DNA of 5,329 nucleotides, taken from IMG/VR virus record IMGVR_UViG_3300045988_044527, positions 1-5,329 of that record, one strand, 5' to 3'. Numbering within the stretch: the stretch's first letter is position 1; every line of letters starts with the position of its first letter. This document shows, one piece after another, positions 1-5,329 of the stretch. The stretch comes from a virus. The position numbers were made by a program, and so were the translations under genes. A model generated the notes under the pieces. It was not told the origin of the DNA, did not search any database, and saw only the letters and a list, made by a program, of their open reading frames with translations.

Positions 1-99
1 ATTTTTTTATGCGTCCTCGCTTGGTTCGCTACTACGGCCCTGATTACGATAATTTGAAACATGGTCGTGTCTATCAGGTTCATTGTCTTTACTCCCATG
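1..99. repeat. Terminal redundancy: exact copy of 5231-5329, indicating a circular genome of 5,230 nt written with overlap
   Basis: Base-by-base comparison shows positions 1-99 are identical to 5231-5329, which is the signature of a circular contig. This is not a biological direct repeat. Confidence 0.95.
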
Positions 100-167
100 G
101 CTTCATGCTGATTGATGATCACAACGAAAAGGCATATGTTTATGCCGGAAATTGTGAGGTGCTATGA
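9..167 (+). CDS. Hypothetical small protein, 52 aa (MRPRLVRYYGPDYDNLKHGRVYQVHCLYSHGFMLIDDHNEKAYVYAGNCEVL); unknown function
   Basis: The ATG at 9 is preceded across the circular junction by GAGGTG (5225-5230) at 8-nt spacing and by the promoter. It ends at TGA 165-167, directly abutting the Rep GTG start in the same frame. I recognise no family for it. Confidence 0.55.
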   Translation: MRPRLVRYYGPDYDNLKHGRVYQVHCLYSHGFMLIDDHNEKAYVYAGNCEVL

Positions 168-1169
168 GTGCCTTGCTATCATCCCATTTACGCCGTTCGT
201 ATCGGTACTAAGGAAAACGGAAAAGCTGAGTTGAAAATGCTTGGTTATACCCCGGATGACCGTGAAACCTATGTCGAATGGCACAACCACCGCTATCCTC
301 GTTCCGCTCTCGTTCCACTGCCCTGTGGTCAGTGTATCGGATGCCGCATTGACTATTCAAGGCAATGGGCAAACCGTTGTTTGCTTGAACTTAAGTACCA
401 TGATTCCGCTTGGTTCTGCACGTTCACCTATGATGATGACCACGTTCCTCGTACTTATTACCCTGATCCTGAAACTGGTGAAGCTATCCCAGCTTTGACC
501 TTGCAAAAGCGTGATTTCCAACTTTTGATGAAGCGTATTCGGAAGAAATTTGAAAATGATAAAATTCGGTTCTTCATGTCCGGCGAGTACGGCTCTCAGA
601 CGTTCCGGCCACATTATCACGCTATTTTGTTCGGTTTGCACTTGGATGATCTCCAACCCTATAAAACTGTCAAGGAAGGAGGTGAGTATTACACTTATTA
701 TAACAGTCCCTCTCTCCAAGAGTGTTGGCCTTATGGCTATGTAGTTGTTGGTGAAGTCACGTGGGAATCCTGTGCTTACACTGCTCGCTACGTGATGAAA
801 AAGCTGAAAGGAAAGGAAGCTAAGTTTTATGCAGACCACAATATTCAGCCTGAGTTTACACTCATGTCCCGAAAGCCTGGGATTGCACGTCAGTATTTTG
901 ACGAAAACCCTCACTGCGTTGAAGAACAGTATATCAACGTTTCTACGCCGAAAGGCGGAAAAAAGTTCCGTCCGCCGAGGTACTACGATAAACTCTACGA
1001 CGTCGAATGCCCCGAAAAGTCCGCAGAGTTAAAAGCCCTACGTGCTAAGCTGGCCCAACAGGCCATGGAAGCTAAGTTGTCTAATACGTCTCTTGATTCC
1101 TATGAACTGAGAGACGTTGAAGAAGAAAAACAGTCCAACCGTTTAAAATCGTTAAGGAGGAATTTGTAA
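168..1169 (+). CDS. Replication initiation protein VP4 (rolling-circle HUH endonuclease, Microviridae Rep), GTG start
   Basis: The 333-aa ORF begins with the N-terminal C-x-x-P-x-x-A-x-R motif (MPCYHPIYAVR) typical of gokushovirus VP4. It has the cysteine cluster CGQCIGCR...C; RCR motif I FCTFTYDD (nt 414-437); HUH motif II PHYHAILFG (nt 609-635); and motif III with the paired tyrosines AYTARYVMKK (Y204 and Y208, nt 777-791), as in phiX174 gene A. The RBS GAGGTG at 156-161 lies 6 nt before the GTG at 168. Confidence 0.92.
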   Translation: MPCYHPIYAVRIGTKENGKAELKMLGYTPDDRETYVEWHNHRYPRSALVPLPCGQCIGCRIDYSRQWANRCLLELKYHDSAWFCTFTYDDDHVPRTYYPDPETGEAIPALTLQKRDFQLLMKRIRKKFENDKIRFFMSGEYGSQTFRPHYHAILFGLHLDDLQPYKTVKEGGEYYTYYNSPSLQECWPYGYVVVGEVTWESCAYTARYVMKKLKGKEAKFYADHNIQPEFTLMSRKPGIARQYFDENPHCVEEQYINVSTPKGGKKFRPPRYYDKLYDVECPEKSAELKALRAKLAQQAMEAKLSNTSLDSYELRDVEEEKQSNRLKSLRRNL

Positions 1170-1402: not shown

Positions 1403-1654
1403 ATGATTACTGGTATCTATGCTATCAAGGACGCTAAGTCCACGTTCATGCCCTGCACCGTTGATGTAAATGATGCTACTGCCGTCCGCAACTTTGAACA
1501 TGCTGTGAGACAGCCTGATTCCCTGCTTGCATCTCACCCCAACGATTTTGCTTTGTATAAGCTCGCCACCTTTGACAACGTCGGCGGCTATATTGAGCCG
1601 CTGAATCCTCCCCGCCAGCTTTGTGACGCCGCCCAGTGCATTGTAAAGGAGTGA
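1403..1654 (+). CDS. Hypothetical protein, 84 aa (possibly the VP5-like non-structural protein of gokushoviruses)
   Basis: The ATG at 1403 has GGAGG at 1389-1393 with 9-nt spacing. Its size and its position between Rep and the structural genes fit VP5. The same frame is open back to an ATG at 1340 (104 aa with a hydrophobic N-terminus), but that ATG has only a weak RBS. The functional call is tentative. Confidence 0.55.
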   Translation: MITGIYAIKDAKSTFMPCTVDVNDATAVRNFEHAVRQPDSLLASHPNDFALYKLATFDNVGGYIEPLNPPRQLCDAAQCIVKE

Positions 1655-1658
1655 CAAT

Positions 1659-2138
1659 ATGGAGTTTAAAACTCAGTATGATGCCCGTGACCGCATCTTT
1701 TCTGACCCCGGTTCTCCTGAGCATATCACCTATGCCGGTCACTATGATGAAAAAGGCCGTGTAGTGCTTGAGGAATCCGGTCGTGAAAACCTGTATGACT
1801 ATATTCAGTCCTACGCCGAAAGCTGTGATATTCACGTTCTCATGAAGCGTTACGCCAACGGCGATGTTGACGCCCTTTCTCAGAAGCAGGGTTTCTATGG
1901 TGATTTCCTCGATTTCCCCAAGACCTATGCCGAAGCCCTCAACCACATGAATGAAATGGAGCGTCAGTTTTTGGCCCTGCCTGTGGAAACTCGTGAGAAG
2001 TTCGGCAACAGCTTCACGGAGTTTCTTGCCGCTTCTGGTGAAGCTGATTTCCTCGAACGGCTCGGAATTAAGAAAGAGCCTGCTGAGCCTGTCCCTGCTA
2101 TTCCTCAGGTTGAAACTAAGGAGGTTACAAAAGAATGA
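1659..2138 (+). CDS. VP3-like internal scaffolding protein, 159 aa
   Basis: The ATG at 1659 is preceded by the RBS AAGGAG (1647-1652), and the upstream gene's stop lies within that RBS. Its size (~150 aa), acidic character and position immediately upstream of the capsid gene fit gokushovirus VP3. The stop overlaps the VP1 start (ATGA). Confidence 0.6.
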   Translation: MEFKTQYDARDRIFSDPGSPEHITYAGHYDEKGRVVLEESGRENLYDYIQSYAESCDIHVLMKRYANGDVDALSQKQGFYGDFLDFPKTYAEALNHMNEMERQFLALPVETREKFGNSFTEFLAASGEADFLERLGIKKEPAEPVPAIPQVETKEVTKE

Positions 2139-3823
2139 ACAGAAATACCGAATCTCATTTCAGTTTGTCCCCCCATGTAGATATCTCTCGTTCTCGCTTT
2201 GACCGCTCTGCATCCCTCAAGACCTCGTTCAATGCCGGTGACGTAGTCCCTTTTTTCCTCGAAGAAGTGTTACCCGGCGATACGTTCAGCGTAGACACAT
2301 CCAAGGTTGTCCGTATGCAGACTTTGCTCACCCCTATGATGGACAACGTATATCTGGATACCTACTATTTCTTTGTCCCGAATCGTCTTGTGTGGGATCA
2401 TTGGAAGGAGTTTTGTGGTGAAAACACTGAGAGTGCATGGATTCCGCAGACTGAGTATACTATGCCCCAGATTACAAGCCCAGCTGGTCAAGGATGGAGT
2501 GTTGGAACTCTTGCTGACTATTTTGGCATCCCAACTGGCGTTGCTGGTCTCTCTGTGTCTGCTCTTCCCTTCCGGGCTTATGCCCTGATCATGAATGAGT
2601 GGTTTAGAGATCAGAACCTCCAAGATCCTCTTGTTGTGCCCACGGATGATAGTACCGTGGCTGGTGTCAATTCTGGCACGTTTGTGACAGATGTGGCTAA
2701 GGGCGGTAAGCCCTTCATCGCTGCCAAGTACCATGACTATTTCACTTCTGCTCTCCCCGCTCCGCAGAAAGGCCCGGATGTAACGATTCCTGTTGCACAG
2801 GCTGGTAGTTATCCGGTTGTCTCTCTTAATCAATATGTTGATTCTAGTAAGTCTAATGCTTCTGTTGCTTGGCAAAAATTAGATGGATCGGGTTTTTCTT
2901 TGCTTGACGGTTTAGGTATTGCTGTTGGTCAAAAACCTCGTAGCGGTGGCTTTGATTCTAAGTATTTTTCCGGTTCTATGACTGTTTCGGAAGGTGCTAG
3001 CGCAGGTTGGGATATTGCCCCGGCTAACCTTTGGGCTGTTGCTGATGGTAACGCCGCCGCCGCTACCATTAACCAGCTTCGTCTTGCTTTCCAGATTCAA
3101 AAATTCTATGAGCGTCAGGCCCGTGGCGGTTCTCGCTATACGGAAGTTGTTCGCTCCTTCTTTGGTGTGACCTCCCCGGATGCTCGCTTACAGCGGCCTG
3201 AATATCTCGGCGGTAACAGAGTTCCTATCAATGTCAATCAGATTGTACAGCAGTCCGGCACTCAGTCCGGCACTACGCCCCAAGGTACTGTTGTTGGTCA
3301 GTCCCTTACCACGGATAAGCATTCCGACTTTACCAAGTCTTTTACGGAGCACGGTTTGATTATCGGTGTTATGGTTGCCCGTTATGACCACACCTATCAG
3401 CAGGGCCTTAGCCGCCTGTGGTCTCGCAAGGATAAGTTTGATTTCTATTGGCCCGTTTTCGCTAACATCGGTGAACAGGCTATCAAGAACAAGGAAATCT
3501 TTGCACAAGGCAATGATAAGGATAACGAAGTCTTTGGCTATCAGGAAGCATGGGCCGAATACCGCTATAAGCCTAATATGGTGACCGGAGAAATGAGGTC
3601 TGCGTATGCCCAATCTTTGGATGTTTGGCATCTGGCTGATGATTACAGCACCCTTCCTTCTTTATCTGATTCGTGGATCAGAGAGGACAAGGCAAACATT
3701 GATCGTGTTTTGGCTGTCACATCTGCTGTTAGTAATCAGTTTTTTGCTGACATCTACGTGAAGAACTATTGTACCCGGCCTATGCCTATGTACAGCGTCC
3801 CCGGCCTGATTGATCATCATTGA
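2135..3823 (+). CDS. Major capsid protein VP1 (Microviridae F-like), 562 aa
   Basis: The N-terminal region RSRFDRS...LPGDTF...MDNVYLDTYYFFVPNRLVWDHWKEFCGE matches the conserved gokushovirus VP1 and phiX174 F N-terminal blocks (LPGDTF, YFFVP.R..W, W.KF.GE). The RBS AAGGAGG at 2118-2124 is 10 nt upstream. Its length is typical of gokushovirus VP1, which carries a large insertion loop. Confidence 0.95.
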   Translation: MNRNTESHFSLSPHVDISRSRFDRSASLKTSFNAGDVVPFFLEEVLPGDTFSVDTSKVVRMQTLLTPMMDNVYLDTYYFFVPNRLVWDHWKEFCGENTESAWIPQTEYTMPQITSPAGQGWSVGTLADYFGIPTGVAGLSVSALPFRAYALIMNEWFRDQNLQDPLVVPTDDSTVAGVNSGTFVTDVAKGGKPFIAAKYHDYFTSALPAPQKGPDVTIPVAQAGSYPVVSLNQYVDSSKSNASVAWQKLDGSGFSLLDGLGIAVGQKPRSGGFDSKYFSGSMTVSEGASAGWDIAPANLWAVADGNAAAATINQLRLAFQIQKFYERQARGGSRYTEVVRSFFGVTSPDARLQRPEYLGGNRVPINVNQIVQQSGTQSGTTPQGTVVGQSLTTDKHSDFTKSFTEHGLIIGVMVARYDHTYQQGLSRLWSRKDKFDFYWPVFANIGEQAIKNKEIFAQGNDKDNEVFGYQEAWAEYRYKPNMVTGEMRSAYAQSLDVWHLADDYSTLPSLSDSWIREDKANIDRVLAVTSAVSNQFFADIYVKNYCTRPMPMYSVPGLIDHH

Positions 3824-3828
3824 TTCAT

Positions 3829-3860
3829 AGAGGGGGCTTTTGCCCCCTCTTGTTTTTTCT
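3829..3860 (+). terminator. Rho-independent terminator/attenuator between VP1 and VP2
   Basis: A perfect 9-bp GC-rich stem, AGAGGGGGC (3829-3837) pairing with GCCCCCTCT (3842-3850), has a TTTT loop and is followed by TGTTTTTTCT (3851-3860). It lies 5 nt after the VP1 stop. It is analogous to the post-F terminator of phiX174. Confidence 0.75.
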
Positions 3861-3876: not shown

Positions 3877-4740
3877 ATGGCATTTGGTACCACTACTTCC
3901 GCTTACGAAATGGATGGTGTCGGAGCCGCTCCGGCTGTCAACCGTGCCGCTGATCAGATCGCTGGTTTGAAAGGTGTTGCACAAGCTAATTCTGCTTTTA
4001 ACGCTGAGCAAGCTAAAGTTCAGCGTGATTGGACAGAGCAAATGACTGCAAAGCAGATGGACTTTAATGCCGCCGAGGCCGCTAAAAATCGTCAGTGGCA
4101 AGAAATGATGTCCAATACTGCCCATCAAAGAGAAGTCCGTGACCTTATGGCCGCTGGCTTGAATCCTGTTCTTTCTGCTATGAATGGCAACGGCGCCGCC
4201 GTTGGTTCCGGTGCGACCGCTTCAGCGTCCCTTGGAAGCGGTTCTAAGGCCGACGCAGATACAGCCGCTTCCGGTGCTATTGCTAACTTGCTCGGCTCCA
4301 TCTTGGGCGCTCAGACGGCGTTACAGAGTGCAAATATAAACGCCCGTACTCAGGAAGCCGTTGCAGACAAGTACACCGCTATGGAGCATATTGTTGCTCA
4401 GATTTCTGCCGCCGCTGGTATTCGGCAAGCTGGTATTCATGCTGGTGCTACTCGTGATGCCGCCGCTATGAGTTCTTCTGCTACTCGGTATGCCGCTGGT
4501 CAGGCCGCTTTAGCGTCTATCTTTGGTTCTTCCGTGAATTCTGCCGCTACTCGGTATGCTGCGGATCAACATTTGGAAGGCTCCAAGTATGGAGCTGATA
4601 AGTCCTATGACGCTTCTAAGTATGCTTCGGATATCAATTGGGATAAGGCTGTTCATTTTGGTAACGGTAGTTTTATGAATCAGATGGCCGGAAATATTGG
4701 TTTGTCGCTTTCAAGTCTTTTAAAAATGATTGGAGGTTAA
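3877..4740 (+). CDS. VP2 minor capsid / DNA pilot protein (H-like), 287 aa
   Basis: The ATG at 3877 has AAAGGAG at 3862-3868. The ORF is open from 3820, but that stretch overlaps the terminator hairpin. The protein is Ala/Gly-rich and carries the conserved block NRQWQEMMSNTAHQREVRDLMAAGLNPVLS characteristic of gokushovirus VP2. Confidence 0.85.
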   Translation: MAFGTTTSAYEMDGVGAAPAVNRAADQIAGLKGVAQANSAFNAEQAKVQRDWTEQMTAKQMDFNAAEAAKNRQWQEMMSNTAHQREVRDLMAAGLNPVLSAMNGNGAAVGSGATASASLGSGSKADADTAASGAIANLLGSILGAQTALQSANINARTQEAVADKYTAMEHIVAQISAAAGIRQAGIHAGATRDAAAMSSSATRYAAGQAALASIFGSSVNSAATRYAADQHLEGSKYGADKSYDASKYASDINWDKAVHFGNGSFMNQMAGNIGLSLSSLLKMIGG

Positions 4741-4742
4741 GT

Positions 4743-4823
4743 ATGGAAAGTATCATCATGGTTTTGTCTTTGTCCGTAGTCACGGCCGCTGCTCTAAAAA
4801 TCATAAAAGAAATTTTTTCTTAA
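4743..4823 (+). CDS. Small hydrophobic peptide, 26 aa (MESIIMVLSLSVVTAAALKIIKEIFS); single predicted transmembrane helix; candidate lysis/toxin-like membrane peptide
   Basis: The ATG at 4743 is 2 nt after the VP2 stop. GGAGG at 4731-4735 gives ideal 7-nt spacing. A TAA stop lies at 4821-4823. It was not in the ORF track, which omits ORFs this short. A hydrophobic core of about 19 residues is followed by a charged tail, KIIKEIFS. Confidence 0.5.
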   Translation: MESIIMVLSLSVVTAAALKIIKEIFS

Positions 4824-4825
4824 AA

Positions 4826-4840
4826 AGCGGCGTCAGCCGC
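4826..4840. other. Short GC hairpin (GCGGC-GTCA-GCCGC); it resembles an intrinsic terminator on the minus strand only
   Basis: A 5-bp stem is preceded on the + strand by AAAAA and TTTTTT, so on the minus strand a U-tract follows the hairpin. On the + strand the hairpin is followed by CAAAAG, which gives no U-tract. Confidence 0.4.
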
Positions 4841-4845
4841 CAAAA

Positions 4846-4875
4846 GAGACCCACGGTCTAAACGCCGTGGGTCTC
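4846..4875. repeat. Perfect 11-bp inverted repeat forming a hairpin (GAGACCCACGG / CCGTGGGTCTC, 8-nt loop)
   Basis: Reverse-complementarity was verified directly: left arm 4846-4856, right arm 4865-4875. No U-tract follows on either strand. Confidence 0.8.
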
Positions 4876-4904
4876 CGCCTGTACGTCCATTTACATTAGG
4901 CGTA

Positions 4905-4947
4905 CACTCAGCACAGTTAACTCTCTTGATGTTAACTGTGCTGAGTG
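4905..4947. repeat. Perfect 17-bp inverted repeat forming a hairpin (CACTCAGCACAGTTAAC / GTTAACTGTGCTGAGTG, 9-nt loop); candidate ssDNA origin or packaging structure
   Basis: Left arm 4905-4921, loop 4922-4930, right arm 4931-4947, verified as exact reverse complements. It lies in the main non-coding region of an ssDNA genome. Confidence 0.8.
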
Positions 4948-5129
4948 ACACCAAAGGTCACTTTGCGTGTCATAGTAGAAGTTGCTTGCACATGTCTAGA
5001 ACGTATGCAGTATTTCAAGATAAAATGTTTAGTAGGAGACCCCCGTAGGATACAAGTTCCTAAAAAATAATAGATAATAAAGTTTAAAATTTATTGGTAA
5101 ACTGAAATAGAACTACATTCTTGGTTTCG

Positions 5130-5161: not shown

Positions 5162-5185
5162 CGAAATCTTTAGTAAATATGCAAA

Positions 5186-5214
5186 TTGATATTTTTGTTC
5201 AATCGTACTATTAT
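5186..5214 (+). promoter_or_regulatory. Sigma70-type promoter TTGATA-(17 nt)-TATTAT driving the small ORF and VP4
   Basis: The -35 TTGATA at 5186-5191, a 17-nt spacer, and the -10 TATTAT at 5209-5214 sit in an AT-rich intergenic region. The predicted transcription start is near 5221. The RBS GAGGTG at 5225-5230 and the ATG at 5239 (= position 9 on the circle) lie just downstream. Confidence 0.6.
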
Positions 5215-5230
5215 CACCTTATATGAGGTG

Positions 5231-5329
5231 ATTTTTTTATGCGTCCTCGCTTGGTTCGCTACTACGGCCCTGATTACGATAATTTGAAACATGGTCGTGT
5301 CTATCAGGTTCATTGTCTTTACTCCCATG
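5231..5329. repeat. Second copy of the terminal overlap; contains a partial duplicate of the 52-aa ORF start (ATG at 5239)
   Basis: Identical to 1-99. The ATG at 5239 corresponds to the ATG at position 9. Confidence 0.95.

Follow-up and report, generated by a model that had tools for sequence, protein, structure and literature searches.

Gokushoviruses such as Chlamydia phage Chp2 and the enterogokushoviruses follow a canonical plan of six genes, i.e., VP4, VP5, VP3, VP1, VP2 and a small DNA-binding protein, and nothing is placed between the non-coding region and VP4, the gene that encodes the replication initiator Rep. Lysogeny at the dif site is known in the enterogokushoviruses (Kirchberger and Ochman 2020, PMC7062461), and the first report of microvirus prophages in isolates of Firmicutes dates from 2022 (PMC9239249); neither of these papers mentions that VP4 is preceded by a leader gene. 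The subject of this work is a stretch of 5,329 nucleotides (nt) from the IMG/VR virus record IMGVR_UViG_3300045988_044527 (hereafter, the window), which corresponds to a circular gokushovirus genome of 5,230 nt plus a terminal duplication of 99 nt, given that positions 1–99 are identical to 5231–5329, as expected from the terminal redundancy of a circular-genome assembly. The window has a GC content of 47%, and all its genes are on the + strand in the canonical gokushovirus order, but in its clade a leader gene is inserted between the non-coding region and VP4. This leader, an open reading frame (ORF) of 52 codons that will be referred to as ORF52, very probably forms with Rep a translationally coupled two-gene operon of a temperate human-gut gokushovirus, and the reading frame that both genes share would be accidental.

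The initial annotation of this DNA pointed out that the ORF at 9–167 and Rep lie in one frame, with a lone TGA between them and the GTG at 168 as the very next codon, and that the ribosome-binding site of Rep, GAGGTG, is encoded within the last codons of ORF52. Both statements are exact to the nucleotide. ORF52 ends with the sequence ...AAT TGT GAG GTG CTA TGA, with its stop codon at 165–167, and Rep opens in the same frame with GTG CCT TGC TAT CAT CCC; the near-invariant Shine-Dalgarno (SD) sequence GAGGTG occupies positions 156–161, 6 nt from the GTG. Rep is a separate polypeptide that initiates at this codon. The protein matches PF23343 at 1.3e-17 and phrog_942 at 5.9e-127, and its alignment to phrog_29197 begins at position 1 of the profile; therefore, its N-terminus is correctly placed. 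A M-x-C-Y/F-H-P motif is found at the very N-terminus of Rep in all the relatives, down to 44% identity, and in these proteins Rep opens with M/V/L-x-C-Y-H-P straight after the SD sequence, the initiation codon toggling among GTG, ATG and TTG.

The comparison of the junction between ORF52 and Rep in the different relatives reveals which of its features are maintained. The sequence CTA TGA GTG is present in nearly all of the 36 loci compared, and TGA GTG in about 30 of them. The GAGGTG at 156–161 is invariant in the clade with the exception of L021, where it reads GAGGTT and the start codon is ATG; site entropy is about 0 at positions 156–160, whereas the flanking synonymous sites vary. The L021 junction is TGA ATG, and therefore the codon that follows the stop behaves like a start codon. 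In L016, which with 73% amino acid (aa) identity is the most divergent relative, the junction is GAGGTGATC TAATG CCG; here the stop codon of ORF52, TAA, overlaps the ATG of Rep by 1 nt, and Rep (MPCYHPIYA...) is read in a different frame. The TGA is thus not conserved throughout, though it is kept in the approximately 30 loci mentioned above.

Sister lineages, in which Rep is 61–92% identical, carry a different protein of 57–59 aa upstream of Rep. This second leader is joined to Rep as ATGA, GTGA or TTGA (overlap), or as TGATG, always out of frame (+1), and a GGTGGTG SD sequence is present within its last codons, at the same position as the SD embedded in ORF52. A SD-like GGTG motif is found in the last codons of the leader in all the junction types seen, and the stop and start codons abut or overlap in all the relatives having a leader gene, whatever the frame. 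Three junction geometries and two unrelated leader families have in common the juxtaposed stop and start codons and the SD inside the leader; given that they are conserved while the frame is not, these features argue for translational coupling and not for recoding. The window retains an ancestral-looking ATGA, in which the ATG at 164 overlaps the TGA, and as compared with the lineages whose Rep begins with MSCYHP, about 4 extra nt shift the frame of Rep, so that the GTG at 168 is used. From this comparison, the shared frame is an accident in the history of few-nucleotide indels at the junction. The initial annotation had considered that such coincidence has a one-in-three chance, and the relatives with other frames show that the frame is not the conserved feature. 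The ATG at 164 was also considered as a functional decoy start and ruled out, since its first base, which is the third one of the Leu codon, can be A, G, T or C at this synonymous site, and the ATG is therefore not conserved.

The second leader family comprises 37 clusters (L136, L138–L145 and L179–L189; proteins P0018–P0053) and is largely unannotated. Homology between ORF52 and this family was ruled out, given that the hhalign probability is 0.2% and the predicted folds differ (all-beta versus alpha/beta). The model of the 57–59-aa leader is a confident alpha/beta domain, with a predicted local distance difference test (pLDDT) score of 91, and the family is conserved at 30–40% identity; no match to the model was found in the PDB, and none to the protein in PHROG. 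More distant relatives (Rep at or below 59% identity) have no conserved leader, and Rep follows directly after the SD, often with TTG or GTG. Therefore, both an unrelated upstream ORF in a different frame and the lack of any leader, which the initial annotation had named as outcomes that would make the shared frame a coincidence, are seen among the relatives. There is no clean correlation between the leader gene and the dif-like site that is described below, and the leaderless prophage L194 also has the site.

A natural variant without the leader was also found. The near-complete genome IMGVR_UViG_3300045988_000002 (L134 and L255; 4,908 nt) lacks exactly the positions 1–155 of the window and hence ORF52; by this deletion the two GAGGTG motifs collapsed into ...AGGAGGTGTTATGA GTG..., and Rep, VP5, VP3, VP1 and VP2 are all intact. 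ORF52 is therefore dispensable in one natural near-complete genome. The same genome also lacks positions 1283–1403 of the window, where the ORF of 41 aa is located.

ORF52 is a genuine unannotated protein-coding gene under selection. Its ATG at position 9 is preceded at a distance of 8 nt by its own SD sequence, GAGGTG at 5225–5230. Among 26 unique nucleotide sequences, the ratio of nonsynonymous to synonymous substitution rates (dN/dS) is 0.074 in its own frame versus 1.6 and 1.25 in the other frames, and the variable sites per codon position are 18/18/45, the third position being dominant; this constraint is comparable to that of Rep itself (dN/dS of 0.01–0.09), and 26 residues are invariant in the relatives compared. 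A search of 5.8e9 sequences gave 14 protein clusters related to ORF52, with 73–98% aa identity. The gene was found in at least 36 related loci; it is present in 8 GenBank records and annotated in none of them, and also in 19 IMG/VR contigs. As the initial annotation had suggested, the 52-aa protein does not belong to any known family: no match was obtained against Pfam and PHROG at E <= 1, and a profile hidden Markov model of ORF52 compared with 1.84 billion representative proteins returned only its own clade, formed by proteins of 52–95 aa, plus two spurious matches. Because this search returned its clade alone, the ORF52 family is considered an orphan confined to the clade. P0016 and P0017 were evaluated as relatives of ORF52 and ruled out; these are tandem-repeat proteins with inflated scores.

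The AlphaFold2 model of ORF52 (pLDDT of 82) shows five beta strands in an all-beta arrangement, and its closest structures in the PDB are SH3 and KOW barrels, with template modelling (TM) scores of 0.6–0.77 and weak Foldseek E values of 0.05–0.3. The product is thus predicted to be an all-beta protein of approximately 6 kDa, similar to a SH3-like small barrel at the level of the fold only. This five-stranded barrel of 52 aa is alike to other SH3-like small beta-barrels, i.e., SH3, KOW, Tudor and the integrase C-terminal domain; however, ORF52 has no sequence similarity with them and no conserved ligand-binding motif. In BFVD, the model resembles many small uncharacterised phage proteins, including the unnamed UniProt entry A0A858NIQ7, which is 92% identical to ORF52. 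Our best guess is that this protein has an accessory role and modulates either the initiation of replication or the decision between lysogeny and replication, because its gene is the first one downstream of attP and is co-expressed with Rep.

The ORF52-Rep pair shows the same 0-nt distance between stop and start that is found in the coupled gene pairs of bacterial and phage operons (ATGA, TAATG, TGA-NTG), and likewise the SD of the downstream gene lies inside the upstream coding sequence, with a 6-nt spacing; along the clade the frame drifts and the geometry is kept. The difference with the known pairs is that for ORF52 and Rep we infer coupling, and that the upstream partner is an orphan small protein, replaced in sister lineages by a non-homologous one. 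Ribosomes that end the translation of ORF52 at the UGA would reinitiate at the abutting GTG, or would unmask the site for new ribosomes; this termination-reinitiation coupling would tie the synthesis of the cis-acting Rep to the translation of the leader, and together with a non-ATG start, it would keep Rep low. A predicted RNA hairpin at the junction, in which positions 154–163 pair with 167–176 leaving an AUG triloop, would bury the SD, the stop and the start, and it may be hypothesized that the Rep SD is masked by this structure.

Several observations weigh against translational coupling as it is proposed here, or limit its reach. The SD of Rep could recruit ribosomes independently. In the variant L134, Rep is served directly by the SD without ORF52, hence coupling is not obligatory. 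The hairpin at 154–176 is 96% paired in the clade with no compensatory changes and no covariation support, and the stability of the junction region does not exceed that of shuffled sequence (z = -0.7). In addition, all the known relatives of ORF52 are close (at least 73% aa identity), so that the comparison samples a shallow clade, and the fold matches in the PDB are generic (Foldseek E of at least 0.05).

The initial annotation had left three readings for the junction, and the first of them, two coupled genes with GTG 168 as the start of Rep, is the one supported by a stop-start arrangement and an embedded SD that are conserved whatever the frame. The other two fare badly. If the UGA were subject to programmed readthrough, an ORF52-Rep fusion with an N-terminally extended Rep of about 386 aa would be produced beside the separate proteins; such a reading draws on the two ORFs being in frame with one UGA between them in about 30 close relatives, and on the fact that UGA is the leakiest stop codon in bacteria. 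Two in-frame ORFs parted by one UGA are likewise the arrangement of the Q-beta A1 type of coat extension. However, in contrast with that case, both the frame and the identity of the stop vary here: L016 has a TAA and Rep in another frame, and the other leader family is always in the +1 frame relative to Rep. Moreover, no fused homologue was detected among the 5.8e9 sequences or the 1.84e9 representatives, GTG and ATG alternate right behind the stop, in line with an initiation codon, Rep has its own conserved SD, the variant without ORF52 retains an intact Rep, and TGA ends most of the other genes of the genome; hence readthrough was rejected as very unlikely. Recoding of TGA as a sense codon was ruled out on similar grounds, since 6/9 genes of the window end in TGA and the genetic code is therefore standard, with no sign of recoding. 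Even less credible is that ORF52 is the N-terminal domain detached from a once longer Rep by the recent splitting of a gene. The phrog_942 profile does include about 58 positions N-terminal to the point where the alignment with the Rep of the window starts, and some of its members are longer; nevertheless, ORF52 alone matches no PHROG or Pfam family, and an artificial ORF52-Rep fusion reaches 424.2 bits with phrog_942, whereas Rep alone reaches 426, the alignment being neither extended nor improved. No Rep with an ORF52-like N-terminus, and no ORF52-like segment joined to Rep, was found in the search of 1.84e9 proteins. Furthermore, purifying selection acts independently on ORF52, a gene provided with its own SD and ATG, and relatives hold an unrelated alpha/beta protein in the same slot. 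The possibility that the role of ORF52 is restricted to being translated ahead of Rep to control Rep expression, its product being functionless, is also improbable, although less so than the previous two: two sequences with no relationship to each other occupy the slot upstream of Rep and share the coupling geometry, and one natural genome does without ORF52, but the dN/dS of 0.07, the 26 invariant residues and the confident compact fold indicate selection on the aa sequence and not just on translation, and the proteins of the other leader family are likewise well folded (pLDDT of 91) and conserved at 30–40% identity.

A reading of a different nature arises from two prophage remnants that retain attL, the promoter and ORF52, and have lost everything from the stop codon onward. 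The breakpoints (L013, 10156/10157; L014, 242/243; L018, 2328/2329, equivalent to 164/165 in the window) agree within 0–3 nt. The remnant represented by L013–15 shares its host locus with L007, a truncated prophage; the junction of the remnant reads ...GAGGTGCTA, then CATATCCCG, and cuts a host gene of the minus strand at codon 31. The L018 remnant shares its host locus with the intact prophage L024 (95.5% identity), and its junction reads ...GAGGTG(T)TA, then GAAGGCAAG. The ORF52 alleles of these remnants differ by about 11%, and therefore the two events, at two different host loci, are independent. It could be proposed that the ORF52/Rep junction is a site-specific point of DNA breakage and joining, i.e., a nick site of Rep or a pseudo-origin, and that rolling-circle events starting from the integrated prophage delete Rep onward, leaving attL-promoter-ORF52 remnants in the chromosomes of gut Clostridia. 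In favor of this idea, rolling-circle replicons are known to undergo deletions in which one end point is the nick site, as Michel and Ehrlich reportedly described in 1986. Two independent derivatives ending within 0–3 nt of 164/165 also speak for it, as do the dif motifs present at the VP4 N-terminus in some gokushoviruses (Kirchberger and Ochman, PMC7062461). On the other side, there are only two events, and a metagenome scan gave no others (when copies of the ORF52 3' end with a next base different from T were sought, 4 chance matches were obtained); variation is free at the synonymous sites that surround the junction, so a long conserved cis element is absent; no dif-like sequence is present at the junction; and a much better candidate for the origin is the hairpin at 4905–4947. 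The right flank of L018 was not found by an exact search of IMG/VR, nor in the 2.3 kb on the right side of attR in the intact prophages. A nick site at the junction is therefore regarded as unlikely, and the coinciding breakpoints may be due to nicking by Rep, to a hairpin loop or to selection. If the breakpoint were site-specific, its recurrence would help to locate the cleavage site of Rep in Gokushovirinae, a site of which no report was found in the literature searched, and if a nick site does exist here, the leader protein may persist in chromosomes, e.g., as an immunity or regulatory factor.

A separate observation concerns L007 (11459–13282; also L008 and L012), a prophage truncated at window position 1521 in one host lineage. 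In this case an ORF of 607 aa from the UvrD helicase family continues in frame from the ~40 initial codons of VP5; beside this fusion, ORF52, Rep and two small ORFs are intact.

The phages of the ORF52 clade are temperate and integrate at a dif-like site, in the manner of the IMEX-like mobile elements that use Xer/dif. ORF52 is also found on bacterial chromosomal contigs, and many 'viral' contigs from IMG/VR are in fact intact integrated prophages of this type, with attL and attR. The attL and attR junctions of the integrated relatives map to the dif-like attP of the window (Table 1), the arm from the host that is present in attL being ATTGAACAAAA. The site in the host is perfectly palindromic and spans 28 bp, ATTGAACAAAA-TGATAA-TTTTGTTCAAT. 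When, in a pair of sister phages, the free genome L152 was mapped onto the prophage L150, a core of 38 nt was seen duplicated at both ends of the prophage (9929–9966 and 15169–15206); in L241/L247 the site is at about 4790–4827. A gene for a XerC/D-like recombinase (336–340 aa, PF02899 and PF00589) adjoins the host site in L150 and L154–156, and integration is presumably catalysed by this host Xer protein. The host is an Oscillospiraceae-like species of Clostridia, without a close representative in GTDB: ORF52 has no match in the GTDB representative genomes, and the best matches of the flanking CoA-transferase reach only 75% (uncultured Clostridia) and 71% (Oscillibacter). These prophages thus share with the enterogokushoviruses the integration at a dif-like site, and differ from them in having a Gram-positive Clostridia host and a dif-like site that is perfectly palindromic and lies beside a single Xer-like recombinase gene. 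In L150, the gokushovirus prophage adjoins a putative single-stranded DNA (ssDNA) element (554–9541) that carries genes with Rep_OBD and Zot-like domains, which suggests that different elements occupy the dif-like site in tandem.

Upstream of ORF52, the attP overlaps the -35 element of the promoter-like site TTGATA-17-TATTAT, and integration turns the -35 TTGATA into ATGATA. According to the initial annotation, ORF52 is the first gene transcribed from the only strong promoter. This was partly borne out: TTGATA-17-TATTAT is the best site of the plus strand and is conserved in the relatives, in phage and prophage copies alike; nevertheless, the number of promoter-like sites in the window, 7, does not exceed that expected in shuffled sequence (7.2). 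Between the -10 element and the ATG of ORF52 there is a terminator-like hairpin (5213–5232) whose 3' arm contains the SD of ORF52. This hairpin is 97% paired in 13 relatives, with a single compensatory change of C-G to U-A that is not significant (87/500 shuffles). It may terminate read-through transcription, and transcripts from TTGATA-17-TATTAT may start inside its loop.

Further upstream, the region 4824–5008 folded as ssDNA gives a z of -9, and includes a 17-bp hairpin at 4905–4947. Its loop, CTCTTGATG, also written (C)TCTCTTGAT, is invariant and contains CTTGAT, and the sequence next to it is ACACCAAAGGTCAC. Compensatory changes are seen in the stem in lineages with either leader; this hairpin is a candidate for the replication origin. 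The nick core of phiX174 is ACTTG^ATA, which the CTTGAT of the loop resembles.

Table 1. Coordinates of the genes and sites of the window.
Feature	Position	Strand	Details
ORF52	9-167	+	52 codons; ATG at 9; no Pfam/PHROG match
Rep Shine-Dalgarno GAGGTG	156-161	+	ORF52 codons 50-51 (Glu-Val), 6 nt upstream of GTG 168
Stop-start junction TGA, GTG	165-170	+	ORF52 stop abuts the Rep initiation codon
Rep/VP4	168-1169	+	HUH rolling-circle replication initiator, 333 aa, GTG start; PF23343, phrog_942
Basic protein, 35 aa	1169-1276	+	
ORF of 41 aa	1273-1398	+	
VP5	1403-1654	+	PF20577
VP3 scaffold	1659-2138	+	PF09675
VP1	2135-3823	+	
VP2	3877-4740	+	
Hydrophobic ORF, 26 aa, MESIIMVLSLSVVTAAALKIIKEIFS	4743-4823	+	GGAGG ribosome-binding site; directly 3' of VP2
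Structured non-coding DNA, about 400 nt	after the 4743-4823 ORF		
dif-like attP	5176-5203	+	left arm AATATGCAAAT (degenerate), TGATAT in the centre, right arm TTTTGTTCAAT (perfect)
Promoter-like site TTGATA-17-TATTAT	5186-5214	+	consensus scan; best plus-strand sigma-70-like site, upstream of ORF52; putative promoter
Hairpin ATCACCT-TATAT-GAGGTGAT, then T7-8 run	5213-5232	+	terminator scan; terminator-like, ORF52 SD in its 3' arm
ORF52, repeat of its initial 91 nt	5239-5329	+	inside the 99-nt terminal redundancy

The hydrophobic ORF of 26 aa that follows VP2 may encode a membrane or lysis peptide. Two other hairpins were noticed in the window: a strong terminator-like one after VP1 (3829–3850), formed by AGAGGGGGC-TTTT-GCCCCCTCT and followed by a T-run, and a GC-rich one in the non-coding region (4846–4876), GAGACCCACGG...CCGTGGGTCTC.

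The 8 GenBank records of Microviridae that are related to the window were obtained from human gut or vaginal samples and are ~90% identical to it genome-wide; a selected and conserved gene, ORF52, is absent from the annotation of all of them. The annotation of Rep itself is also affected. In L001, L002, L004, L005 and L006 (OP971934-37 and KT264760), VP4 is annotated from an internal ATG, equivalent to position 237 of the window; thus, in 5/6 records inspected, 23 N-terminal residues are lost, including the conserved PCYHP motif, and the GTG start is used only in OP549869.

From these results, the Rep of an abundant clade of human-gut microviruses is a separate protein made from a non-ATG start and not a readthrough product; that the coupling operates and keeps Rep low is what we infer. 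A more general proposal, put forward jointly with that of the nick site and as doubtful as it, is that leader genes coupled to Rep are a replaceable accessory slot of the temperate gokushoviruses of Gram-positive hosts. Small proteins of no fewer than two unrelated families are found in this slot, which lies immediately downstream of the dif-like attP and its overlapping promoter and represents a concrete target to address how the ssDNA prophages of Gram-positive gut bacteria control Rep, and hence lysogeny versus replication.

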